This document shows, in pieces, positions 9,115 through 64,000 of a DNA stretch of 64,000 bases. Source of the stretch: a virus; the UHGV virus genome UHGV-0125199. One strand, given 5' to 3'. The notes below the pieces were generated by a model. The model ran no database searches and was not told where the DNA came from. It worked only from the letters and a program-made list of their open reading frames with translations. The position numbers and the translations under genes are program-made. Each line of letters begins with the position of its first letter. Within the stretch, counting starts at the first letter, position 1.

Positions 9115-9664
9115 TATCTATTTTCTTTTGTAAATATTCTAATGCAGACAATCGTTCTGCAAATTCTTTTGATTCTTTTCCATGAAAATAACTAATTTCC
9201 CATAACTCTCCATCCTCGGTTCTGTAATATTTCTGTTCCTGTGGCTTATTATTCCGTGTAAGATATTCATACACATTCCGACAATACAATTTTTCGTATT
9301 CTCCTAATGGGATATCTTCTTTTTCAAGTTCTTGCACTTTACAGCATCCTTTCATAATTTATATTCTTCGTCCATGTAACAGTCCATCTACCCTTGTTTC
9401 TGCGTAAAATTCAAAATCCATGCAGCAAATGTTATGACTATTATGCACAGAATTTTCTTCTCTTCTTATTCTCTCTTTGATTCCTCTACTTTGTTTCTTA
9501 AATAAATACTCCATGTTGTTCTTTTCTCTTCTCATAATATCCCTCCTATTTTTGCAATAAAAAAACAATCAGATATTTCCGATTGCTTTAATTGATTCAT
9601 ATTTTTTCTTATATACACTACAAAAGTCACCAGGATAATCTGATGACTTCTAACTATACACACA

Positions 9665-9802
9665 TTATCTTCCTTTTTTTGCTTTCTTCCATTCATATTC
9701 CCATCGTTCTTGATCTGACATTTTACTTGTCTTATGATCTTCTGCCAATGCAAACAAACCTCCAATAACAAGAACAATTGTTCCAAAAATAATTCCACCC
9801 AT
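9665..9802 (-). CDS. small hydrophobic peptide (45 aa, one TM) not in supplied ORF track
   Basis: strong RBS GGAGG 6 nt upstream of ATG; 'MGGIIFGTIVLVIGGLFALA...' TM helix. Confidence 0.35.
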   Translation of the reverse strand: MGGIIFGTIVLVIGGLFALAEDHKTSKMSDQERWEYEWKKAKKGR

Positions 9803-9920
9803 AATAATCCTCCAAATATTTTTTTTATTTTAAACTATCACTAAGATTTTCCAAAAAAGCACATAACATCAATAAGAAAATTCCTCCAATTAACGCTCCC
9901 ATATATATATCCCTCCTTCA

Positions 9921-10472
9921 TTATCCATTATATATGTAAGCACACTTATGTGCGACACCACTCTGTGTTCTTCCTAACTCTTTTGCAACTTCTCTATAAG
10001 ACATTCCTCTGCGTAACATGGATTTTGCATATTTTATTTCCATATCTGTCCAGTATTTTCCTTTGTTTGGTCTGTCATATGAGAATTTTTCACACCTTAC
10101 CCACGCCGGTTCCAAAGCCAATGTCGTACAATTATACCTAGACCAGTTGATAATATCCTTATGCTGTTCAGCCCATTTCCAAAAATTTTCAAGATCAATC
10201 ATATATTTTGTGCAGCACGAACATTTAAATTTACGACATGGAAGATCATATTGATTTATCCACTTCATGACTACCTTATGAGTAACATTGAAACACTCAG
10301 CAAGTTTATTCACGCTTAAAACATCATGCACCTTGCTCAAGCCTATATCCAAAGCCTTTTTAACAACTGCACGTTCTGTTCTATTAAGTCTTTTTGCTGT
10401 AATTGACACAGCCTGATTCAAATATTTCGATTCCAAATACCTAATCTCTCTGTCCGTCCATCTTTGAGCCAT
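9921..10472 (-). CDS. DNA-binding protein with two tandem HTH repeats (sigma-70 region-4/Myb-like)
   Basis: repeated 'W(T)D(R/M)EI(R/K)Y...S' followed by HTH-like 'VAKELGRTQSGVAHK' / 'ITAKRLNRTERAVVKK'. Confidence 0.45.
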   Translation of the reverse strand: MAQRWTDREIRYLESKYLNQAVSITAKRLNRTERAVVKKALDIGLSKVHDVLSVNKLAECFNVTHKVVMKWINQYDLPCRKFKCSCCTKYMIDLENFWKWAEQHKDIINWSRYNCTTLALEPAWVRCEKFSYDRPNKGKYWTDMEIKYAKSMLRRGMSYREVAKELGRTQSGVAHKCAYIYNG

Positions 10473-10474
10473 AC

Positions 10475-10783
10475 TTACACAATCTCCCTAGGAATATAAT
10501 CTGCAAGATAATCTTCTTGTCTCTCTTTGAAACGTATTTTTAAATATCCAACATAGTGGAATTTAATTCCATTCTCTTCGAGCAATCCCTTAAAAATATC
10601 TCCAATAGGTTCACATACATCTGTACATGAATTAAACTTTCTAGTTGCTTCTCCGGCAAGACTCTCCACCTCTCTCTGTCTATCTAATGGAATCTGATAT
10701 ACTTCTGGTCTTGCTCCGTAACCTTCTTTGTATTCATTGTTATAGGTTCCATCAAAATCCAATACAAATAATGTCCACATCAT
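10475..10783 (-). CDS. hypothetical protein
   Basis: ORF. Confidence 0.35.
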   Translation of the reverse strand: MMWTLFVLDFDGTYNNEYKEGYGARPEVYQIPLDRQREVESLAGEATRKFNSCTDVCEPIGDIFKGLLEENGIKFHYVGYLKIRFKERQEDYLADYIPREIV

Positions 10784-10863
10784 AATTTCTTACTCCTTTA
10801 TTTCCTGCTGCCAATTCTTTTAATATTGTCATTTCTCTCTCAAAAGAAATGATACTTTCATTG

Positions 10864-11232
10864 CTATTCGCACAACTCTTTTGCTAATGCCAACATCAAT
10901 TCTTCTGCGTTGTCAAAAGTAATAACAGTTCCGTTTCCAATACCTGTGTAAATTTCCTTTGATGCATCATAATCTTCTAAATGTTTTACATCATATCCTT
11001 CTAACCAAGGTCTTTCTTCTTCCTCTGTTAAGTCAATCATTTCTTTTGTAGGCACTTGCAACTCAATCATTACACAGTTTCCATTTTCATCATCATAGAA
11101 TAATCTAGCTGCTTGTTCATAATTCACACCAGTTTCTTCATTTTTCATATCCTCAACAAACTGTTCAAAACTTTTTCCGTCATTAATTCCTTCAAAATTC
11201 CATTCAAATCTATACATAATATCTACCATCAT
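10864..11232 (-). CDS. acidic hypothetical protein (122 aa)
   Basis: high Asp/Glu content. Confidence 0.4.
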   Translation of the reverse strand: MMVDIMYRFEWNFEGINDGKSFEQFVEDMKNEETGVNYEQAARLFYDDENGNCVMIELQVPTKEMIDLTEEEERPWLEGYDVKHLEDYDASKEIYTGIGNGTVITFDNAEELMLALAKELCE

Positions 11233-11914
11233 TTCTTTAAAATACGAGTTTCAACTTAATCTTCTAAAAATTTGAAACTAAACGGTTTTGAATGACTAAT
11301 AAAAATTTTATCACCTATTTTGTATGAACTATTATAGTCTTCTTGCATATCTGTTATTCTAATTGTCCATCCTAAATCATCTACATTTTCAATGATTCCC
11401 CATTTTTTATACGAATCTCCGGGATACAACTGAATTTCTTTTCCAATATAAATTTCTCTGTTATATTTCATAATTTCCACGCCCCTTTACACAATCAAAT
11501 TCCGACTTCATCTCATTTTATATCCCGATGATGATATGTGTTTCCATCATCACATTCAACTAAAATAACCTTCCTGACAATATCATTTAGCGGTCTTGGT
11601 TGATAAGCTCGCAACACCGTTAGTATTTCATTTGTTTCCTTGATGACTATCTCGTCTCCATTATGTAATTTTTTTGCATCATTATATTTCATAATCTTTA
11701 TTTTTCCTATCAATGTTTTCGCTTAACAAAATCCTGATTTCAATTACTCAAAATCATCATCTACAATTTGTGCATCATCGAAATCTGACCAGTCAAAATC
11801 TCCGTCATCCATATCATTTATTAATTCAATTGCTTCACTTTCTGTATCAGCTTCTAAAACTGCATAACCATATTTAACTACCATAACTCTCATTTTTGCC
11901 ATAATCATTTCCTC

Positions 11915-33047: not shown

Positions 33048-33925
33048 TTTTCAAGAAATCAACTTCGTCCGTAATATGGAAGGATGAGAGTTTTGCTTAT
33101 ATTCAAAATTCTTGAGATGAAATCAAGACTCTTAAGACGACAAACGCTATTGCCAAAGCGTTTAATAAATATGGAGATATATCTATAATAAAGCCCCTAT
33201 TGAAAGGGGCTTGGGCTTTGCCCAATATAAGCACTTGCTTATAAATACAAATAACTCAGTGCAGATTGGCTTGTCACCATGCTGAGAATATATGAATAGT
33301 GAGTTGCGGTATAATACGATAGTTTTATACTGCAGCTTCTGGAATGATGTGAATCATAAACAGAAAGACGGAAACCGTCAAAACTAAATATATGTACAAT
33401 AATATATTGCCGTAAAACGCAATTGCCAGATCGCTGACATAATAGACGACTCCAGTGGAGTAATAATCGTGATGCCTGTATCGGTGGAATGTTACAGAGA
33501 GATAAGTAGCGAAAATCCAAATAAGTCAGTTGCGTCGTTGATCGGAAGAAATTCCAGTATAAGATCTGTCGAATGTACGAGTAGCCCAAAGTGACGTGAG
33601 ATTAATACATAAAGAACAAAAAAATTAAATCTTATTATGAATTTTCTTAATACGCTGAATGACATGGGTGAAAGTTTCTCGTAATCAGTCGAGGCTACAA
33701 TTGCTGTTTATCAGATGTAAAGGAAGTCTAAGGGTAGCTCCCTTATTCTCAGCCCTTTACAAGTAGTGGCGGAATATTATGACGATATATTTGAGTAGGA
33801 AGAAGTTCCATTTGTATTTATAATCAAGTGCTTATGCGCGCACTTGACGATTTCTAATCTCCTTTTCAGTTAGTAATAGCATTGCTGTTCTGGTAGTGCT
33901 GTTGCTAACATCTTAGGAGTATTTT

Positions 33926-33997
33926 AGCCCCATCGCCAAGCGGTAAGGCACAGGACTTTGACTCCTGCATTCAGTAGTTCGAATCTACTTGGGGCTG
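33926..33997 (+). tRNA. tRNA-Gln (anticodon TTG)
   Basis: acceptor AGCCCCA/TGGGGCT, D-arm, anticodon stem CAGGA/TCCTG loop CTTTGAC, T-arm AGTAG-TTCGAAT-CTACT, discriminator G. Confidence 0.75.
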
Positions 33998-34277: not shown

Positions 34278-34351
34278 TGCAGGCGAGTGGAACGGATTAC
34301 TACGTCAGACCCATAATCTGAAAATACTGGGTTCGACTCCCAGGCTCTGCA
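34278..34351 (+). tRNA. tRNA-Met(CAT)-like element, probably degenerate (C33, imperfect acceptor stem)
   Basis: D-arm GTGG/CTAC, anticodon stem TCAGA/TCTGA loop CCCATAA, T-arm CTGGG-TTCGACT-CCCAG; acceptor pairs only 6/7 with a bulged G. Confidence 0.35.
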
Positions 34352-34628: not shown

Positions 34629-35876
34629 TTGGAATGCACATTATTCCTTGATACGAATGCATTACTTAGTCTCGGCGAAAATGCATTTAAAGAAAAATTT
34701 ATTATTGCACAAAAGACACTTGAAGAGATCGAGAATATCAAAGTGTCTAATTCTAAAGATGGAGAAGTAAAATACAAAGCCAGACAAATTTCAAGACTAT
34801 TGGATAAACATGATGGCGAATATGATGTGGTTTTATACTCTCCAAAAATTAAAGAAATAATTGATAGTTATTTCTTATCTGAAACGCCAGACAACATTAT
34901 CTTGGCTTCTGCTTATTATTACAATTCAAATGTATCGGAAGTACTTGTATGTTCTGATGATTTAAATTGCAAATTCATATCTCGTAATATTTTTGGACTT
35001 CCTACAAAGGGAGTTTCGGATATTAACCTTGTCAAAAATCTTGACGAATATCTTGGATATAAAGAATTAACATTGTCTGATGAAGAAATGAGTTACTTCT
35101 ATTGTCATACAAATGAAAACATTTATGATTGTATTTTGAACGAATATCTCATTATTAAAAAATCAGATGGAGAAGTTGTTGATTATAGAAAGTGGGACGG
35201 TTTTGAATATAAAGCTGTATGTGAAAAAACAGTTCGCTCTACTATTTTTGGAGATAAAATTAGACCGAAAGATTCATATCAAGCCTGTGCTATTGATTCA
35301 ATTTTTTCAAATACAATGACAGCTATTACCGGACATGCAGGTAGCGGGAAATCATTGATATCACTAATATCTATGATGAGTCTTATTGAAAATGGAGAAT
35401 ATGATAGAGTGATCATTATGTTTAACCCTAATAAAGCAAAGGGTGCTGCAGATATGGGTTTCTATTGTGGTAATGCTACTGAAAAGGCACTTCAAAATTC
35501 TATAGGTTCCATGTTAACTACAAAATTTGGTGATAGATTTGCTGTTGAAATGTTGTTGCAGCAAGATAAAATTCGATTAGTATCTATGGCAGATGTACGA
35601 GGAATGGAAGTAAGGGATAATGAAATTTTATACATTAGTGAAGCGCAGAATACATCAATCGAATTATTAAAGTTGTGTTTATCAAGAGCAAGTAGCGGAT
35701 GTAAAATTGTTATCGAAGGTGATTATGATAGCCAGGTTGATTCTTATTTATTTGAAGGAAATTCAAATGGTTTTAAACGCGCAATTGATGTGCTTCAAGG
35801 TGAATCAGAATTTGGATATGTACATCTTCCGAATGTTTGGAGAAGTAAAATTGCAATGTTAGTGGATAAATTATAG
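34629..35876 (+). CDS. PIN-domain + PhoH-like ATPase fusion protein
   Basis: N-term 'LFLDTNALLSL' PIN start; Walker A 'GHAGSGKS'; PhoH-like C-terminus. Confidence 0.7.
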   Translation: MECTLFLDTNALLSLGENAFKEKFIIAQKTLEEIENIKVSNSKDGEVKYKARQISRLLDKHDGEYDVVLYSPKIKEIIDSYFLSETPDNIILASAYYYNSNVSEVLVCSDDLNCKFISRNIFGLPTKGVSDINLVKNLDEYLGYKELTLSDEEMSYFYCHTNENIYDCILNEYLIIKKSDGEVVDYRKWDGFEYKAVCEKTVRSTIFGDKIRPKDSYQACAIDSIFSNTMTAITGHAGSGKSLISLISMMSLIENGEYDRVIIMFNPNKAKGAADMGFYCGNATEKALQNSIGSMLTTKFGDRFAVEMLLQQDKIRLVSMADVRGMEVRDNEILYISEAQNTSIELLKLCLSRASSGCKIVIEGDYDSQVDSYLFEGNSNGFKRAIDVLQGESEFGYVHLPNVWRSKIAMLVDKL

Positions 35877-39543: not shown

Positions 39544-40578
39544 GTGAGATTATTGAGTGAAGAAATTGCAAAGCGTTCAGAGGACATAACTGATGAGATT
39601 TGGAATCAGGTTAATGAATTCAATAGAGAAATGGTTCAGGATTATCTTGATAATCAAACTGACCTTTCACTAAAGACTCGTCCGGCGTATCGCTCTGGAT
39701 TAAGAGTCTTTTTTGTATATGTAAAAGATCACTTGAACAATAAAGATTTTACACAAATAAAGAAAAAAGAATTTCAAAAATATCTTAATTGGTTGACTAA
39801 TAGAGGTTTATCTGATTCAGCAATTAAATTTAAAAAATCATGTGTAAGTGCATTTTGTAATTATATAATGTTAATGTATGAAGAAGAATATCCTACATTC
39901 AGAAATTTTACTGTTGGATTAAAAGTAGTACAAACAGGATATGTTCATGAGAAAAACCCGCTGACACCGGAAGAATATTTAATGCTATGTAAAGAATTAG
40001 AAAAACGTGAAGAATGGCAAAAATTAGCATATTTAGTTTTTTCTTATAGCACAGGATGTAGACGAGCTGAGGCACGTCAACTTTTGAAAGAAGTTGTTGA
40101 GTATAAACCAAAAGAGAAAGAAACAAAAATTAAAGGTGAAGATGGTGTAGAGCATGTTGCAATTTCTCGCCAATACTTAACACATACAATTAGATGTAAA
40201 GGCGCATCGTTGGTTGGAAAACAACGTAAACTAAAATTCGGAGAAGATGCTATGTATTGGTTAAAAAAATGGATTGAAGCGCGAGGAGAAGATGAATGTC
40301 CTTATATGTTTGTTGTAAAACAAAGAAATGGAGAAACTCGTCAAGTTGGCGAGAATACGTTTAATGATTGGTGTAGTGGACTATTTACAGAAATAGTAGG
40401 TAGACGCGTACATCCGCACCTGTTTCGAGAAAGTCGCGCAACTAATCTAGTAGTTTACGAAAATAAATCTCCAGAAGTTGCTCAAAAACTTTTAGGACAT
40501 AACGATGTTAGTACAACTACAAATCATTACATAATCAGAAATGATGATTTTGACGAGTCTGATGAAGCATTCATCTAA
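39544..40578 (+). CDS. tyrosine recombinase (XerC/D / phage integrase family), GTG start
   Basis: 'CRRAEARQL' (Arg), 'HPHLFRESRAT' (HxxR), 'LGHNDVSTTTNHYI' (Tyr). Confidence 0.7.
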   Translation: MRLLSEEIAKRSEDITDEIWNQVNEFNREMVQDYLDNQTDLSLKTRPAYRSGLRVFFVYVKDHLNNKDFTQIKKKEFQKYLNWLTNRGLSDSAIKFKKSCVSAFCNYIMLMYEEEYPTFRNFTVGLKVVQTGYVHEKNPLTPEEYLMLCKELEKREEWQKLAYLVFSYSTGCRRAEARQLLKEVVEYKPKEKETKIKGEDGVEHVAISRQYLTHTIRCKGASLVGKQRKLKFGEDAMYWLKKWIEARGEDECPYMFVVKQRNGETRQVGENTFNDWCSGLFTEIVGRRVHPHLFRESRATNLVVYENKSPEVAQKLLGHNDVSTTTNHYIIRNDDFDESDEAFI

Positions 40579-41044: not shown

Positions 41045-41116
41045 TTTTGTATTTGGCTCCATGGTCAAGAGGCTAAGACATCGCCCCTTCACGGAGGTAA
41101 CACTGGTTCAATTCCA
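41045..41116 (+). tRNA. tRNA-Glu (anticodon TTC)-like, with G29-A41 mismatch and C33
   Basis: acceptor GGCTCCA/TGGAGTC, loop CCTTCAC, 'GGAGGTAACACTGGTTCAATTCCAGT' closely parallels bacterial tRNA-Glu. Confidence 0.55.
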
Positions 41117-41203
41117 GTTGGAGTCATTATTATATTCCGGCTTTCAAAAGAAATGCCGGTTTCATATCGGCAGAAAATAGAAAAAAGAAAGCGAGGGAAA
41201 ATA

Positions 41204-42135: not shown

Positions 42136-42162
42136 GGACGGTGCTACTGCCGTCCTATTATG
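42136..42162 (+). terminator. hairpin terminator (GGACGG-TGCTACT-GCCGTCC) after fiber-like gene
   Basis: 6-7 bp GC stem followed by TATTAT. Confidence 0.4.
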
Positions 42163-42231
42163 CTTGGATAGTTTAATGGAAAACGATTGACTTGTAATCA
42201 ATTGTTCCCAGTTCAAATCTGGGTCTGAGCT
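42162..42231 (+). tRNA. tRNA-Thr (anticodon TGT)
   Basis: acceptor GCTTGGA/TCTGAGC (two G-U), U8A9, D GTTT/AAAC, anticodon stem ATTGA/TCAAT loop CTTGTAA, T-arm CCCAG-TTCAAAT-CTGGG. Confidence 0.55.
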
Positions 42232-42272: not shown

Positions 42273-43313
42273 TTGTCAGAAGAAAAATCAACAAGAAGTC
42301 TAACGATAACAACACCAAAAGACACGACCTCTGTTAAAAAAATACGATATTCCAAAACAGATGAACCAGATTTTTATAAATGTACAGTTTGTGGGACACC
42401 GTATAAAAACTTAGATGGCAATTTTCCTGCATCTCAAAGCGAATTATACTCTGGATGGGATTATCATATTTCAACATGTAGAAAATGTCTTGACAGATTG
42501 TTTGAACATTATACCGAAGCTTATGGTGGAGATGAAGATATGGCAATACGTATAATTTGTCAAAAATATGATATTTATTACGATGTAAGCCTATTAAACG
42601 CAAGTAGAAAAATTACAAAAACAAGATCTCGAATCCATAATTACATTTCGAAATCTAACTTACGACAGTATGCGGGAAAAACTTTTGATACAACATTAGA
42701 TGAAGAAAGAAAGGGCAATGTAATTGAAAACATTGATGATTTAAAAGAAAATAAATCAAAAATAAGAATAAAGACTGTAAAATTTTGGGGAACAGGTTTT
42801 ACAGATGATGACTATGATTATTTGCAAGAGCAATATGACGATTGGACAAGTCGTCATGAGTGTAAAACTAAAACACAAGAAGAAGTATTTAAAAGAATTT
42901 GTTTCAAACAGCTAGAGATACTAAAAACCACTCGTGCAGGAAAAGATACAAAAGAACTTGATAAAACATTTCAAAATTATCTTGATACAGCTAATCTAAA
43001 ACCATGTCAGAACACGAATGCATTATCAGATGCACAAACTCTTGGAACGTTAATCCAAAAATGGGAAAATGAAAAACCTCTTCCGGATATTGATCCAGAA
43101 TTAGAAGACGTAGATAAAATTGGATTATATATCGATGTATTTTTCAAAGGTCATTTAGCAAAAATGATGGGATTAAAAAATGGATTATCTAATTTGTATA
43201 ATAAATTTATGAAAAAATATACCGTTGAAAAACCAGAATATAAAGATGACGAAAATAATGAAGCACTTTTTGATGCTATTTTCGGAAATGATGAGAAATT
43301 TGAGGATTTTTAA
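42273..43313 (+). CDS. putative terminase small subunit / DNA-binding packaging protein (by position; Zn-ribbon 'CTVCG...CRKC')
   Basis: immediately precedes terminase large subunit exon 1, stop adjacent to its ATG. Confidence 0.35.
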   Translation: MSEEKSTRSLTITTPKDTTSVKKIRYSKTDEPDFYKCTVCGTPYKNLDGNFPASQSELYSGWDYHISTCRKCLDRLFEHYTEAYGGDEDMAIRIICQKYDIYYDVSLLNASRKITKTRSRIHNYISKSNLRQYAGKTFDTTLDEERKGNVIENIDDLKENKSKIRIKTVKFWGTGFTDDDYDYLQEQYDDWTSRHECKTKTQEEVFKRICFKQLEILKTTRAGKDTKELDKTFQNYLDTANLKPCQNTNALSDAQTLGTLIQKWENEKPLPDIDPELEDVDKIGLYIDVFFKGHLAKMMGLKNGLSNLYNKFMKKYTVEKPEYKDDENNEALFDAIFGNDEKFEDF

Positions 43314-43538: not shown

Positions 43539-44530
43539 AAATATCACGAGTGGAGGAAATAACAAATGAGTAAATATGTTTACAATAAAGATTATTTCGA
43601 AAAAATTAACACATCAGAAAAAGCATATTGGCTAGGTTTTTTATATGCAGATGGATGTATTACAAGATTTTATAAGGGAGAAGTATTAAAATCTATGTCT
43701 TTAGAAATTACTTTAAAAGACGCAGATTGTGAACATCTTATTAAATTTAAAAACGCTTTAGAAAGTAATATTCCTATTCAACATAGAATTATTACCGGGA
43801 AATATAAAGCAGATAGAATAGTTGTTAATTGCACAAAAATATGTAATGATTTAATCAAATTAGGTTGTACTCCGACTAAAAGTCTAACATTAGAATTTCC
43901 TATAAAAGATATAATACCTCAAGATTTTATAAGAGACTTTATTAGAGGTTATTTTGATGGAGATGGTGGTGTATCTTATACTGAAGGTAAATATTATAAT
44001 AATGCTAGAAAAAAATATTACAAACAGCATCACTATCGATGCTATTTTTGTGGAAACATACAATTTTTAACTGAATTAAAAAAAATATTGAATTCTAATG
44101 GAATTAAAACATCTGATCTAAAAAAAGACAATAGAAGTAATGCAATTAATATTTATATATATGGAAGAGAAAATATAGAGAAATTTAAAAATTATATATA
44201 TACAGAGGGGTGTGTGAACTTATCAAGAAAATTTGATAAGTTCTTTTTTATTTCCCACAATAGCGATCTTCATATAAATAGATAACGCCATGTTTAGCCC
44301 TGTCTAAATTGGGGAAAATCGGTGAAGACTAAATTTATTTAAAATATAAAATAAATATGTTAATACCGAGATAACTTAATAGATTTCGTAAGGCTATTAA
44401 GCATTGTAGAGAGTAGAGATTGAATAAATATAATATCTCCAAGAGTCCCCAACTACATTATTGTAGAAAATGTACTCCAAGCTGAGTTGGAAATGACCAA
44501 CTGATGAAAATGAAGGAAACTTCCAGAGCA
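43536..44530 (+). mobile_element. ~1-kb intervening sequence in terminase large subunit gene carrying a LAGLIDADG homing endonuclease ORF (probable group I intron)
   Basis: TerL reading frame resumes at ~44531 (in-frame '...DKKPMVNNILKTWLTALF...'); HE ORF free-standing with own RBS. Confidence 0.55.
43566..44285 (+). CDS. LAGLIDADG-family homing endonuclease (two-motif, single-chain)
   Basis: 'AYWLGFLYADGCI' and 'FIRGYFDGDGGV' LAGLIDADG motifs. Confidence 0.75.
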   Translation: MSKYVYNKDYFEKINTSEKAYWLGFLYADGCITRFYKGEVLKSMSLEITLKDADCEHLIKFKNALESNIPIQHRIITGKYKADRIVVNCTKICNDLIKLGCTPTKSLTLEFPIKDIIPQDFIRDFIRGYFDGDGGVSYTEGKYYNNARKKYYKQHHYRCYFCGNIQFLTELKKILNSNGIKTSDLKKDNRSNAINIYIYGRENIEKFKNYIYTEGCVNLSRKFDKFFFISHNSDLHINR

Positions 44531-46096
44531 TAGGATAAAAAACCTATGGTTAATAACATACTGAAAACATGGCTTACTGCTCTATTCTGCGTCGTTCGTT
44601 GCATATTATTCCCAGGAAGCAAGATATGCATTGCTTCTTCAACAAGACCACAAGCGAATCAAGTCCTTTTGAAAATAACCGATGATTTTTGTAAAAACTA
44701 TGGATGGGGTTCAGATAATTTGAATAATGAAATAGGGTACAAATCAGTTGGTGCGAATAATGCGGTGATTGAATTTAAAAATGGGTCATGGATAAGAGTT
44801 GTAACTGCATCTGACAGTGGACGAGGCGCACGTGCAAATATTCTAATTGTAGACGAATTTCGTATGGTTGATTTAAATGTTATTAATACTGTTCTTAGAA
44901 AATTCTTAACAGCTCCGCGCACCCCAGGATATTTAAATATAAAAAAATATTCTCATCTAACTGAGCGTAATAAAGAAATATTTATGTCCAGCGCATGGTA
45001 TAAATCTCATTGGTCATTTGAAAAAGCGAAAGCATATGTCGTGAATTTTTTAGATAATAGTAAAAAATATTTTATTTGCGGACTACCGTATCAAATAGCA
45101 ATCAAAGAAAATTTATTATCAAAAGAACAGGTTGAAGATGAATTTTCTGAGCAAGACTTTGATCAAACATCTTTTGATATGGAGATGGGATGTTTATGGT
45201 TTGGTGATACGGACGGTTCGTTTTTTACATTTGATGATTTATCTAAATGTAGAAAAATAAAAACACCGATGGAGACACATTTTTTCAAAAATAAAAAAAT
45301 ACCAGACTTAGCCCTTAATGAAAAAAGAATTATGTCTGTAGATATTGCATTAATGGGTTCTAGTAAATCAAAGAATAATGATGCAAGTTCAATTTTAATT
45401 AATAGTGCTCTTCCAACAGAAAGCAATGAGTACATTTCAAATATTGTATTCTTAGAAAATCATGAAGGACTTACAACTGACGAATTAGGAATTATTGTCA
45501 TGAGATTGTTCTATAGGTATAAATGTACAGATTTGGTAATCGATACAAATGGAGCCGGTTTAGGTGTATATGATTTTATTATAAAGAATCAGTTAGATCA
45601 AGAAACAGGTGATGTGTATAAAGCTCTTACTTGTTGTAATGATAAAGACATGGCAGAAAGATGTAAAGTCGAATCGGCAAATCCATGTATATGGTCGATA
45701 AAAGCCAATGCTGCTTTTAATAACGAGATGTGTGTTATGCTTCGTGCAGGAATACAAAATGGGAAGATCAATCTTCTTGTATCAGAATTTGAAGCAGAGG
45801 AAATATTAAGAGACAAGATTAAGTCATATTCAAAGATGCAATCTTTTGAACAATTAAAATATAAAACACCATATATTCAAACAACATTGCTGATATATGA
45901 ACTCATAAATTTACAGCATAAGATAGAAGGAACAAACATTAAAATAAAGGAAAAATCTGGTATGAGAAAAGATAGATATAGTTCTTTGGGATATAATTAT
46001 CACATATTAAGAACATTAGAAAAAAATCTTAACACAGATTCTTATTCTTCAGATTTTTCAAATTTTACCCCATGTATTTCTTCTATATCATTTTAG
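44531..46096 (+). CDS. terminase large subunit, exon 2 (Walker B + nuclease domain)
   Basis: 'ANILIVDEFRMV' Walker B; length and position; follows exon 1. Confidence 0.6.
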
Positions 46097-61256: not shown

Positions 61257-62471
61257 ATGAGTGAATATGAAGTACGCGTTGACACGAATGTAGACACAAG
61301 TGAACTCGATTCCGCACAGAAAAAATTAGATAGTTTAGTTAAAAATGGAAAACATATTAAAGTTGATTTTGATATTCAGGGAATGAAGAACCTGAATAAG
61401 ATCAATGGTGTCTTAAAAGGAATCGAAAAAAATAATAAGATCAGTGTAAAAGCTGATATGGATACATCCGGAATTAAAAAAGGATTATCTGATATTGAAA
61501 AAGCGAAACGAAGTGTTTCTACTTTAAAGATTGATGCAGATGTTTCAAAAGCGAATGCAGATTTTAAAAAGTTTGAATCTCTTACGACAAAATCCGCGGA
61601 AAAGGCTCGAAAGTTATTATCTGACATCAATAAAGATATTAATAATGTGAAATTGGCTCCAAATGATTCCATTATGGAAATTAATTTTAAAAAACTTACC
61701 AGTGATTTAGAAAAGTACAGGAATCAGATTAAGGTTGTACAAAATGAGCAAAAAGCTCTTGGTAATTCTATTACATCTGTATCAAAATCATTTAGTAAAA
61801 TTGATGCAGTAACTGCCTCTAACAAGACCTTAACGTGGTTAAAAAACAATAGTCGCGCTGCAAAAGTATATGGCGATCAACTAAAAGAAATTGCAGAATC
61901 TCAGAGAAAAGCAACATCAGATTCAGAGCTAACTTCACTAAATAAAGATTTCAACAAAACTGTATCTGAGGCAAAATTACTTGGACTTACTGGTAAAAGT
62001 TTTACAGCGGAATTTAAACGTGCATTTTCTCAAATTGCACAGTTTACGCAAATTTATGGTGGAATTGAAAATGTAATTCAGACTATTCAAAACTCTGTTA
62101 TTGAATTAAAAAATGTTGATTCTATTTTAACAGAAATTTCTAAAACATCTGATATGACAACAGATCAACTTACAAAACTTGGAGAAACATCTTTTGATTC
62201 CGCAAGCAAGTGGGGAAAGAAAGCAAGTGATTACCTACTTGGTATCCAAGAAATGAGTAGATCTGGCTATTATGGCAAACAGGCTGAACAAATGGCTGAA
62301 ACAAGTATTCTTGCTCAGGCAGCCGGTGATTTAAATTCAGATGTTGCAAATAGTTATCTTTTGGCATCGAATGCCGCATATCAATATTCTGGAAATGTTC
62401 AAAAACTTAATGCATTGCTTGATGGACAAAATATGATTAATATAGTGGTCATGCTATATAGAAATATATAG
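61257..62471 (+). CDS. tail tape-measure protein, exon 1 (N-terminal part)
   Basis: coiled-coil/alpha-rich TMP-like N-terminus; reading frame resumes after ~1.2-kb insertion with TMP core-like sequence. Confidence 0.5.
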   Translation: MSEYEVRVDTNVDTSELDSAQKKLDSLVKNGKHIKVDFDIQGMKNLNKINGVLKGIEKNNKISVKADMDTSGIKKGLSDIEKAKRSVSTLKIDADVSKANADFKKFESLTTKSAEKARKLLSDINKDINNVKLAPNDSIMEINFKKLTSDLEKYRNQIKVVQNEQKALGNSITSVSKSFSKIDAVTASNKTLTWLKNNSRAAKVYGDQLKEIAESQRKATSDSELTSLNKDFNKTVSEAKLLGLTGKSFTAEFKRAFSQIAQFTQIYGGIENVIQTIQNSVIELKNVDSILTEISKTSDMTTDQLTKLGETSFDSASKWGKKASDYLLGIQEMSRSGYYGKQAEQMAETSILAQAAGDLNSDVANSYLLASNAAYQYSGNVQKLNALLDGQNMINIVVMLYRNI

Positions 62472-63676
62472 CTTCATAGTTGGCTTTTATCCCGGAAACT
62501 CCAGAGATGGACAATCGGGAGGATAAGTTAAATAAAATACGGTAGAAAGAGGATATTATAGAAATAAAATTAAAATCATGGCAAACTCTCGCAAACTGTA
62601 AATTTTGTAATAAAGAGTTTGTAACTACTAAATATAAGGTTAATAATAATAAAAATGGTGTTTTTTGTAGTAGAAGTTGTTATGCTGACTACAAAAAAGA
62701 AACGATGACAGGTTCACAAAATATAAATTATAAAGAAAAGGTAAAGGTTCATTGCGATAATTGTGGTAAGGAAATTGAAAAAATACCATCTTTAACACAT
62801 AATATAAACAAACAAGGAGAAAACCATAACTTTTGTTCTTATGAATGTTATTGGGAATTTCGTAAAAAATATTATGTCGGGGATAAATTATATAATACTG
62901 GAAAAAAGATGGACGAAATTTTTTGCAATAAGGTAAGAGAAGCAACATTAAAACAATATCAAGATGGTATACTTGATAGACAAACAATACCACAAAAGAT
63001 AGTTAATAGTATATTAGAAAAAAATAATATTAATTATATCAATGAAAAAACTTTTAAATATTATTCTGTCGATAATTATTTAATAGAACATAATTTAATT
63101 ATTGAAGTTATGGGTGATTATTTTCATGTGAACCCTTTAATTTATACAGATTCAAATGAGATGAATAATATGCAGAAAAAGGATATTGATAGAGACAAAA
63201 GTAAACATACATATATAAAAAAATATCAGGATGTTGAAATTTTATACCTATGGGAATCCGATATAAAAAATAATCCTTTATTATGTGAAGAATTAATAAA
63301 AAAATATATAGAATCAAATGGCAAGTTGGAAGAATATAATTCTTTTAACTTTTCTTTTTGTGATAACAATTTAAAATTAAATAACAATATTATTAAACCG
63401 TATTTTATTTAACCCCCTAACGACTAAGTTGTAATATGGTAACATATTGCACACGCCGACTTCGATAGATATAGTCTATCCGTTACCTATAAGTCCGTAG
63501 GAACGCCTAACGTAAAACGAGGGAAAAGATATAGTCTAGTCTCACGCTATAATCTAAAAATGAAACGTGAGAGGTAGGATTAACGTCCTATCCGCTTTAT
63601 TGTTATTTAACAATAAAGTCCAATGCTTTGTCCTGGAAGCATAGTAATAGAACAAACTAACAGGAACAGTGTATCC
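62472..63676 (+). mobile_element. ~1.2-kb intervening sequence in tape-measure gene encoding a Zn-ribbon + Vsr/DUF559-like endonuclease (probable group I intron)
   Basis: structured GC-richer segments flanking HE ORF (e.g. 63421-63600); TMP frame re-opens at 63617. Confidence 0.5.
62705..63412 (+). CDS. homing-endonuclease-like protein: tandem C4 Zn-ribbons + PD-(D/E)xK Vsr/DUF559-like domain; ORF open upstream to 62546 without canonical start
   Basis: 'HCDNCGKE...CSYEC' ribbons; 'IIEVMGDYFH...DIDRDKSKHTYIKKYQDVEILYLWE' E-x-x-G-D-x-x-H ... D-R-D pattern. Confidence 0.5.
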   Translation: MTGSQNINYKEKVKVHCDNCGKEIEKIPSLTHNINKQGENHNFCSYECYWEFRKKYYVGDKLYNTGKKMDEIFCNKVREATLKQYQDGILDRQTIPQKIVNSILEKNNINYINEKTFKYYSVDNYLIEHNLIIEVMGDYFHVNPLIYTDSNEMNNMQKKDIDRDKSKHTYIKKYQDVEILYLWESDIKNNPLLCEELIKKYIESNGKLEEYNSFNFSFCDNNLKLNNNIIKPYFI

Positions 63677-64000
63677 ATGCAGGATATGGCAGAAGCCACA
63701 ACTCAAGCAGCTTCAATGGCATCAGAATTGGGGGTTCAAGAAAATCAACTTTCTGCGATGATTGGAACAATTGAGTCCAGAACAAAAGCAGGTGGCAATG
63801 AGGTTGGTAATGCGATCAAATCATTGTTGATAAACGTTCAGAATGTAAATAACTCAAAAATTGCAGAAACGTTTAAAAAAGCTGGCGTTGCTCAGACAGA
63901 GTTTGTAAACGGTGTAGAAAAAATGCGTAATCCAATTGAAGTATTGGAGGATCTTGCGAAAGTATTTAATCAATTAGAAGAGTCAGATCCACTGCGTACA
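63617..64000 (+). CDS. tail tape-measure protein, exon 2 (continues past window end)
   Basis: 'AEATTQAASMASELGVQENQLSAMIGTIESRTKAGGNEVGNAIKSLLINV' typical TMP core region. Confidence 0.55.

Follow-up and report, generated by a model that had tools for sequence, protein, structure and literature searches.

A probable mobile td-type group I intron with a terminal A and a Vsr-like homing endonuclease gene in a phage tape measure gene

The tape measure gene (TMP) at the 3' end of the window, that is, the whole stretch of 64,000 nucleotides of the virus genome UHGV-0125199 that was analysed, is interrupted by an element of 1,217 nt (62438-63654; all features described here are on the + strand). 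Taken as a whole, this element is most convincingly explained as a mobile td-type (IA2-like) group I intron with a homing endonuclease gene, and the narrower assignment, a group I intron carrying an endonuclease similar to the EDxHD enzymes, can be made with great confidence. That group I introns in the TMP genes of phages can carry homing endonucleases is already documented; what is unusual here is a clade, denoted type A, with a terminal A where nearly all group I introns have a G.

The ends of the two TMP exons, 62437 and 63655, follow from the comparison with intron-less homologues, which fix the junction. Exon 1 (61257..62437) ends after the second position of the Ile394 codon and belongs to an open reading frame that matches the tape measure family phrog_4211 at positions 372-710 of that family (E 1.9e-18). 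The first base of exon 2 (63655..64000, truncated where the window ends) completes the Ile codon and is followed by TNRNSVSMQ; the frame of this exon matches PF10145 (E 3.8e-15) and positions 722-827 of phrog_4211. The insertion is located between the second and third base of an Ile codon within the invariant TMP motif LDGQNxI↓TN (here and below, the arrow marks the junction). In particular, the junction ...GQNMI↓TNRN... is placed by the uninterrupted homologues P0121-P0127 and by the DNA of locus L001: at least six uninterrupted proteins (from P0121, 95% identical, through P0127) read LDGQN(M/E/S)ITN(R/K)NSVSM across the break, and the intron-less DNA of L001 reads ...GGACAAAATATGAT↓AACC..., with the entire 62438-63654 stretch absent. 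A junction at QNMI↓NSVSMQ was rejected because the homologues retain TNR. The initial sequence-only reading correctly noted that the exon 1 frame runs to a stop at 62471 (the open reading frame 61257..62471 ends with TAG 62469-71) and that TMP-like sequence is open from about 63617, but the last 11 codons before this TAG and the first 13 after 63617 belong to the intron; its proposal of an intron-like insert stands, with the boundaries moved from 62471/63617 to 62438-63654. A blastn search of 61257-64000 against 50,697 deposited phage records gave no match, and no junction-spanning protein at least 99% identical to the source phage was detected among 5.8 billion proteins.

No intron family was detected by Rfam in the whole window at gathering scores, and no RF00028 match was found in 62300-63800 at E<=10. 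When the intron halves were searched separately, the 63405-63660 segment produced only a 5'-truncated RF00028 match of 9.7 bits (E 4.6), where the gathering score is 50, and the search with intron models that had been suggested as a check failed to recover the intron. This failure is probably due to the 870-nt ORF insert and the IA2 peripheral elements, and the identity of the intron therefore rests on comparative structure. To this end, 10 related introns were aligned with the ORF removed, and the 114 base pairs of the P1-P9 fold were compared with slid pairing partners and 500 shuffles. The pairs are 88.1% paired (37.7-46.7% with slid partners), and 60 of them are changed on both sides, compared to 10-19 in the slid controls, a number that none of the 500 shuffles reaches. 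Across the 10 relatives, P3 is 100% paired (with compensatory changes in 3 of its 6 pairs), as are P6, P7, where C-G is replaced by G-C in two sequences, and P7.1, which likewise shows compensatory changes; the values for P4, P5 and P8a are 98%, 97.5% and 98%, respectively, and the peripheral P9.2, which was scored with its register off by one, is 48.6% paired. Compensatory changes are found even within type A, namely in P2, P6a, P9.3 and P9.4.

P1 (62433..62452, 95% paired) joins the exon end AUGAU (62433-37) to GUCAU (62448-52) of the internal guide. At the 5' splice site, the wobble U62437-G62448 is U-G in all 10 sequences, and changes in the exon are matched by changes in the guide (GAGAU/GUUUC in L014 and GGAU/GUCC in L283). 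The P10 part of the guide is UAGU (62443-46), and the ACUA/UAGU pairing is fully complementary only in the four type A rows of the alignment. The P2 hairpin with its GAAA loop (62453..62472) is 96% paired, with 6 of 8 pairs altered on both sides, and contains the in-frame TAG that stops ribosomes arriving from exon 1. According to the covariation alignment, the 5' core (62479..62543) consists of the P3 5' strand (62479-84), P4 (62490-95/62515-20), P5 (62500-03/62508-11), P6 (62521-22) and the P6a 5' strand (62527-43). The 3' core (63397..63654) begins with the P6a 3' strand (63397-413), which overlaps the last codons and the stop of the ORF, and includes P7 (63422-26/63532-36), P3' (63455-60), P9 (63540-72) and the P9.0 3' strand (63648-49), in addition to P7.1, P8a, P8b, P9.2 and two further hairpins. 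The G-binding G-C pair in P7 (G63422-C63536) is invariant in all 10 sequences. The 63413-63654 segment folds at -66 kcal/mol (z = -4.74, with none of 200 shuffles as stable), and the GC content of 63421-63600 is 39.4%, compared to 22.8% in the ORF and 32.1% in the window, in agreement with the initial impression of a structured and GC-richer 3' part. Our own covariance model, CM R1, matches 63414-63573 by construction; a core matching this model also follows more than 19 other endonuclease homologues, directly on their 3' side.

Judged from its sequence and that of its relatives, the insert belongs to the group I introns, as a T4-td-like (IA2-type) member, and not to group II; the covariation-supported P1-P9 fold and the internal guide that pairs with both exon ends bear out the proposal that the insert is an intron. 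Group II was ruled out given the lack of both a reverse transcriptase and GUGYG...AY ends, and an intein was ruled out by the stop codons in the TMP frame. More generally, a free-standing endonuclease gene or another insertion (a group II intron or an intein) without a ribozyme of its own would fit the lack of any Rfam intron family at gathering score, but the sequences on either side of the ORF fold as a group I intron, with covariation support and a guide that serves both exons, and such an insertion can be given next to no credence. The group I intron is predicted to be self-splicing in a GTP-dependent manner: the RNA would fold into P1-P9, an exogenous G would attack after U62437 in the U-G wobble of P1, and the freed exon 1 would then attack the 3' splice site to yield ...GQNMI-TNRNSV....

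The T4 td intron (IA2, encoding I-TevI) shares with the present intron the helix order, the location of P7.1 between P7 and P3', and the ORF in the loop of P6. The J6/7-P7 sequence CCUAACGACUA is identical, the J8/7-P7' sequence GAUAUAGUCU is common to both introns, and the 5' core has the same layout (GACAAUCCCG in td and GACAAUCGGG here). The P9.2 hairpins are similar as well (GGUAAGAUUAACGACCUUAUC in td and GGUAGGAUUAACGUCCUAUCC here), and the Shine-Dalgarno sequence AAAGAGG precedes the endonuclease in both cases, with td having AAAGAGG-N7-AUG for I-TevI. Conversely, the host gene is td in T4 and TMP here, P8 is branched and two extra 3' hairpins are present here, the endonuclease is of the GIY-YIG family there and Vsr-like here, the start codon is AUG there and AUA, as we propose, here, and the last base is G there and A here. 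The best match of CM R1 on the td locus with filters off is td P7-P9, in register but weak (E 0.18); there was no match with default filters, the similarity to T4 td is too low for blastn, and a pairwise MAFFT alignment of td with the window intron was misaligned and uninformative.

The homing endonuclease gene (62558..63412) is inserted in the P6a loop and encodes a protein of about 284 amino acids if counted from AUA. The first ATG is found only at 62705, which would give a protein of 235 amino acids, but the frame is open for 53 codons further upstream, to 62546, as had been noticed initially, and this extension encodes the first zinc ribbon, which is under purifying selection. The sequence-only reading had reported no canonical start, and indeed there is no ATG before 62705; we offer as an explanation the strong and conserved Shine-Dalgarno sequence AAAGAGG (62546-52) followed by in-frame AUU AUA (62555-60; the whole element spans 62546..62560). 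The Shine-Dalgarno sequence and the in-frame AUA are kept in 8 related introns, and relatives have ATG or GTG at this position, suggesting that translation of the endonuclease probably starts at the non-canonical AUA 62558. Such a weak start would hold the expression of the endonuclease low, which would be relevant because the last codons of the ORF form the 3' strand of P6a.

The protein consists of two N-terminal zinc ribbons of the zf-FCS family (PF06467, two stretches, E 3.5e-10), which correspond to the two CxxC...CxxxC ribbons recognized at the outset and are presumably involved in DNA binding, and a C-terminal Vsr-like nuclease domain; no NUMOD or HTH match was found in the N-terminal part. 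The sole significant PDB match of the C-terminal domain profile is 3R3P, the catalytic domain of I-Bth0305I (E 2e-5), and among 19 family members, 6 match DUF559 and 3 match Vsr. Foldseek comparison of an AF2 model identified Vsr (1CW0, E 2e-4) and 3R3P (E 3.9e-4) as the best PDB matches. These observations agree with the initial suggestion of a Vsr/DUF559-like nuclease and refine it, in that, among characterised families, the EDxHD homing endonucleases are closest; a Vsr-fold nuclease related to I-Bth0305I is supported. I-Bth0305I, the prototype of the EDxHD family, comes from the recA intron of Bacillus phage 0305phi8-36 (PDB 3R3P; PMC3239194) and has the composite catalytic motif E170, D196, N208, H213, D222. 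The invariant D176, H194 and D217 align with D196, H213 and D222 of this motif, the D217-D222 match having been set by eye across a 14-residue length difference, and E187 aligns with the extra conserved acid E206 of I-Bth0305I. Both enzymes are encoded by phage group I introns and share the C-terminal Vsr-fold domain (for the predicted model, Foldseek TM 0.83-0.84 normalised to the target). In contrast, the motif glutamate E170 is replaced by an invariant Gln150, identity in the structural alignment is about 22%, the N-terminal NUMOD/HTH repeats of I-Bth0305I are replaced by zf-FCS ribbons (two here and more in homologues of 370-400 amino acids), and the ORF is located in P6a here and in P5 there. 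This joining of a Vsr-like nuclease to zinc-ribbon modules characterizes a family of more than 500 members that lack a Pfam nuclease annotation and are often mislabelled as HNH or 'hypothetical'.

The enzyme is expected to be specific for the intron-less TMP site: it would cleave TMP alleles that lack the intron, close to the insertion site, and repair of the break would then introduce a copy of the intron (homing). The intron has spread horizontally in recent times, being 96.1% identical between the window and locus L012, where the flanking exons are only 66.3% and 62.9% identical. The intron-less allele of L001 shows 13 differences in the 60 positions just 3' of the site versus none in the 60 positions on the 5' side. 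We also observe that the intron is spreading in abundant phages. A metagenome scan with the 14-mer CTAACGACTAAGTT was too unspecific: 2 of the 120 loci it returned proved to be true introns.

The last nucleotide of the intron (omega position, 63654) is A, as opposed to G in the sister introns. All 29 retrieved type A loci read ...AUAGU(A/C)AUAG(A/C)ACA↓AACU, whereas the relatives outside type A have GAAAGUAACAG-N3-5-G↓, and all sister clades that were examined have G. We considered the G conserved in GUAAYAG as the terminal G and rejected it since it would result in a stop codon or wrong residues in every sister intron. The intron-less cognates have x-Ile at the junction; for example, L014 encodes EI, matching P0125. 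The terminal G binds the P7 pocket in the second splicing step, and model ribozymes in which it is replaced by A are strongly impaired in exon ligation; a search of the literature for natural group I introns without a terminal G yielded nothing usable. In type A, the G-binding pair in P7 is unchanged despite the terminal A, a P9.0 pair change is compensated (U-A/A-U replacing U-A/G-C), and a new 4-bp P10 is present. Splicing at the canonical junction despite the missing terminal G is, on balance, the favoured outcome, and A63654 would be the 3' splice-site nucleotide. More tentatively, and with somewhat less than even confidence, an actively homing natural clade might have swapped the conserved terminal G for A and still yield the essential protein; the re-paired P9.0 and the newly acquired P10 would then define the 3' splice site, with the G-binding pocket unchanged. 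The terminal A may be tolerable because a virion requires very few tape measure molecules.

If the loss of the terminal G instead shifted exon ligation of the same intron to a nearby G, the candidate junctions would be AUGAU↓GAACAG or AUGAU↓AACAAACU, compared to the canonical AUGAU↓AACUAAC. The absence of G from the omega position in the 29 retrieved type A loci is compatible with such a shift. So is the presence of G63650 directly after the P9.0 strand, the usual geometry of a 3' splice site, but use of G63650 would add 4 nt, translation would stop at ...ITN, and this truncation of an essential protein is at odds with the spread of the intron in abundant phages. The other candidate, G63663/63664, lies exactly 9 nt downstream and would give an in-frame product shorter by 9 nt, GQNM(I/M)-NSVSMQ without TNR, yet T156 and N157 are invariant in the TMP homologues and the TNR codons are intact and in frame in all type A copies. 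Moreover, the guide UAGU-G-GUCAU brings exon 1 into register with ACUA (63656-59) and with neither alternative site. A shifted junction appears unlikely. We consider it highly improbable that the intron no longer splices in the type A clade and that TMP is made as two polypeptides, the first ending at TAG 62469-71 and the second restarting, at AUG 63623 for instance, within the 3' part of the insert. A phage gene can keep its function when an endonuclease insertion splits it (Aeh1 nrdA is one example), the terminal G is missing, and AUG 63623 is in frame with exon 2 in the window; however, this in-frame AUG is absent from the type A relatives L097 and L100, and no Shine-Dalgarno sequence precedes it. 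In addition, the entire ribozyme core is under structural constraint, with compensatory changes within type A too, and P9.0 and P10, which are used solely for the selection of the 3' splice site, have changed in a compensated fashion. Canonical splicing with a terminal A remains the preferred reading. The second step has been regarded as always requiring the terminal G, and the type A clade lacks this G in at least four divergent TMP backgrounds while still spreading, so that it provides either a natural test of the extent to which P9.0 and P10 can replace the terminal G or a case of phages that tolerate a mis-spliced or split TMP.

Similar arrangements in TMP genes include TMP-IVS1-3 in prophages of the B. 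cereus group (PMC2504315) and the TMP intron of Vibrio phage ICP1, the splicing of which has been shown by RNA-seq (PMC10448857). These are likewise IA1/IA2 introns in conserved parts of TMP, with related introns at neighbouring sites and an endonuclease content that differs among copies; in contrast, the endonucleases there are HNH, GIY-YIG or none, and the host phages here are human-gut contigs of about 110-166 kb. With gene callers, the endonuclease is cut short at the internal ATG and TMP is split, and Rfam misses the intron; therefore, annotations of gut phages are systematically wrong at such loci. Finally, a sister intron is located 12 nt upstream in TMP, at LD↓SQNY.

The tape measure protein (TMP) gene is closed by TAG 62469-71 (ORF 61257..62471), and TMP-like sequence resumes in a second frame, open from 63617. 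The exon 1 piece matches profile positions 372-710 of phrog_4211 (tape-measure), and the exon-2 piece matches positions 722-827 of the same profile and Pfam PF10145 (E 3.8e-15); the two pieces thus belong to one gene that is interrupted within a conserved domain. The sequence-only reading had likewise proposed a single interrupted gene, resuming in frame at about 63617. In uninterrupted homologues (P0121, with 95% identity, P0122, P0123, P0125, P0126, P0127 and others), LDGQN(M/E/S)ITN(R/K)NSVSM reads straight across the break, and in the intron-less allele L001 the DNA at the junction is GGACAAAATATGAT followed directly by AACCAATAGG. These comparisons delimit the insert to 62438-63654 (1,217 nt) and place the junction, AU/A, inside the Ile394 codon. 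The 5' splice site lies after AUGAU, the U-G wobble position being fixed by the sister introns L017, L277 and L290, which have an A beside the guide.

The only Rfam match in the insert is a 5'-truncated RF00028 on its 3' half (9.7 bits, E 4.6), so that checking against group I models, as proposed earlier, fell short; since the curated models failed, relatives for a comparative structure were collected among homologues of the insert ORF, TMP homologues and a metagenome pattern scan. The resulting alignment contains 10 distinct introns with the ORF removed, on which a structure hand-built on the window sequence, with T4 td as the guide, was scored. For its 114 pairs, 88.1% of the cells are paired, compared to 37.7-46.7% with partners slid, and both sides change in 60 pairs, against 10-19 in slid controls and 26.4 +/- 3.3 in shuffled ones, a count reached by 0 of 500 shuffles. 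The core helices are almost uniformly paired across the 10 introns (P3, P7 and P7.1, 100%; P9, 98.6%; P4 and P8a, 98%; P5, 97.5%), with compensatory switches in L283 and L290 in P7 (GACUA/UAGUC to GAGUA/UACUC) and P3 (GUUGGC/GCCGAC to GUCUGC/GCAGAC). Judged by this covariation, the intron-like element is a group I intron. Its 3' part is structured and GC-richer, as noticed previously: the 3' segment has a folding z of -4.74, and the GC content is 38-39% in 63413-63654 vs 22.8% in the ORF and 32.1% in the window. R1, a covariance model representing the 3' core, has no other match in the window; for more than 19 further homologues of the insert ORF, it detects the core immediately downstream, and the endonuclease and the intron type thus travel together. 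Additional R1-type group I cores, beyond the endonuclease-linked one, occur in the related loci L034 (2193-2304), L053 (2420-2552) and L041 (5657-5781); in some gut phages, several introns of this subfamily thus lie near one another.

The helices are arranged as in T4 td and other IA2 introns: P7.1 follows P7 and precedes P3', and the P6a loop houses the ORF. Several core strings are identical to those of td. When R1 is run on the T4 td locus with filters off, its top match falls on td P7-P9; the register is correct, but the match is weak (E 0.18).

The intron is 96.1% identical between the window and the related locus L012, whereas the flanking exons are only 66.3% (600 nt) and 62.9% (340 nt) identical, and the same intron type is present in at least four TMP backgrounds with 56-60% protein identity; in these sequence comparisons, this combination is a signature of recent homing. 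The exon-1 protein cluster, P0128, includes 149 member sequences indexed in 126 collection blocks. A second TMP site, 12 nt upstream at LD/SQNY, is occupied by sister introns. The guide of L283-L289 fits this site (GGAU/GUCC), with a normal terminal G, and these introns encode a longer (~370 aa) relative of the window endonuclease (e.g., L283 3123-4583). When L001 3271-3400 is compared to window 62378-62437 plus 63655-63714, 60 of 60 positions are identical directly 5' of the insertion site and 13 of 60 differ directly 3' of it; the differences in the first ~45 nt of exon 2 are synonymous (read by eye), and farther downstream the difference drops to 5-11 per 60 nt. The 3' differences may mean that the target resists cleavage, or they may mark where a co-conversion tract ends.

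Inside the insert, an ORF of 235 aa starts at ATG 62705. The 288-aa conceptual product contains two zf-FCS-type ribbons (PF06467, E 3.5e-10) and a C-terminal domain that has no Pfam match of its own. The 548 homologues fall into length classes of ~235, ~285 and ~370-400 aa, and among 19 family members Pfam detects DUF559 in six and Vsr in three. The single significant PDB match of the C-terminal domain profile is 3R3P, the I-Bth0305I catalytic domain (E 2e-5), and the AF2 model (pLDDT 79.7) is structurally closest to Vsr 1CW0, 3R3P (TM 0.83 on target) and 1VSR, in agreement with the Vsr/DUF559-like nuclease recognized from the sequence. Profile alignment to 3R3P, with residue roles from Taylor et al., 2011 (PMC3239194), equates D176 with I-Bth0305I D196 (Vsr D51, Mg2+ ligand), H194 with H213 (Vsr H69, general base), E187 with the extra conserved acid E206 and, probably, D217 with D222 (Vsr D97). 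The fold match and the aligned residues suggest that the protein is related to the EDxHD family and putatively acts like an EDxHD homing endonuclease. However, an invariant Gln150 aligns with the motif Glu170, and zinc ribbons replace the N-terminal NUMOD/HTH repeats of EDxHD enzymes; by sequence, the product is a distinct sub-architecture relative to that family.

The endonuclease frame is indeed open for 53 codons upstream of its first ATG (from 62546), with no canonical start. The ribbon encoded upstream of ATG 62705 (C..C...TTKY...FC.R.CY) is kept in seven diverged sequences, and substitutions there favor third codon positions (e.g., 11/9/27 vs the related locus L098), both of which indicate that this stretch is translated. 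In eight introns, an in-frame AUA follows a Shine-Dalgarno sequence (AAAGAGG or GAAAGGA) by ~4-7 nt, and the equivalent position is ATG in L277 and L290 and GTG in L283, so AUA 62558 is the likely initiator; T4 td has AAAGAGG-N7-AUG ahead of its ORF. The P6a 3' strand (63397-63413) consists of the five final codons of the ORF plus its stop codon. By analogy with I-TevI, weak translation of the endonuclease would protect intron folding, given the overlap of the ORF end with P6a.

In every sister clade, the intron ends in GAAAGUAACAG-N3-5-G, and the last G gives precisely the junction that the coding sequence needs (AU/A or AU/C, Ile). The type A clade, to which the window intron belongs (with L012, L097 and L100; 29 retrieved loci in total), ends in AUAGUAAUAG-(A/C)ACA/AACU, the second slash marking the junction. 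The omega position, the last intron nucleotide (63654), lacks G in all 29 loci, which rules out an assembly error. The chemistry of splicing disfavors an A there, and a cryptic G might be used as the 3' splice site instead: use of G 63663/4 would lose 9 nt, in frame, whereas use of G 63650 would add 4 nt and a stop. Two further determinants of 3' splice-site choice differ in the type A lineage. In J7/9, GUCU is followed by A rather than G, and AAYAG has U rather than C as its Y; together, these bases make a compensated P9.0 pair (paired in 10 of 10 sequences, but a single evolutionary event). The P1 loop has gained UAGU, the complement of ACUA in the first bases of exon 2 (P10); L097 has UGGU, which is still compatible via a G-U pair. 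The G-C pair of the P7 binding pocket is unaltered.

The coordinated P9.0 and P10 changes, along with the ongoing spread, speak for a 3' splice site that works and against decay, and we favor, with some reservation, splicing of type A at the canonical junction with the terminal A. The lesser part of the probability is shared by a cryptic G and by the absence of splicing, with TMP made in two pieces; for the latter, an in-frame AUG 63623 could serve as the exon-2 restart but is not retained by L097 or L100. The element is of moderate interest, which would become high for ribozyme specialists should splicing with a terminal A be confirmed.

The sequence-only identification was correct, and such elements are already familiar: group I introns occupy three TMP sites in B. 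cereus-group prophages (PMC2504315), splicing of the ICP1 TMP was verified by RNA-seq (PMC10448857), and intron-borne Vsr-like endonucleases are already known (PMC3239194). Three variant features stand out: the lack of a terminal G, accompanied by compensated P9.0 and P10; a conserved AUA as the likely start; and an endonuclease that combines zinc ribbons with a Vsr-like domain and has Gln for the motif Glu.

Several other features were observed in the window and its relatives. In L002 and L003 (locus 9137-11700, approximately window 64393 onward, past the window end), the TMP exon-2 ORF is 238-256 aa long, and variable small ORFs, an acetyltransferase among them, come next; L003 also has an additional 486-aa ORF. 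TMP is probably interrupted again there, and the R1 search found no R1-type core in this region. A LAGLIDADG endonuclease ORF (43566-44285, +; PF14528 E 9.4e-12, phrog_4645 E 1.6e-49) lies with 42273-43313 and 44546-46096, and the ORF just downstream of it matches only positions 290-560 of the 807 of the terminase large subunit phrog_2. The R1 search found no td-type core and the Rfam search no intron at this locus, which resembles another essential gene with an interruption and probably corresponds to the 'first' intron-like element implied previously. The window also encodes a full-length ROOL RNA (33231-33828, +; 340.9 bits, E 6.4e-78) adjoining tRNA genes, four tRNAs (33926-33997, 34279-34351, 41055-41126 and 42162-42231), a PIN-PhoH protein (34629-35876, +) and a tyrosine integrase (39544-40578, +; PF00589 E 4.3e-17). 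The contig is phage-like, and related contigs are ~110-166 kb long.
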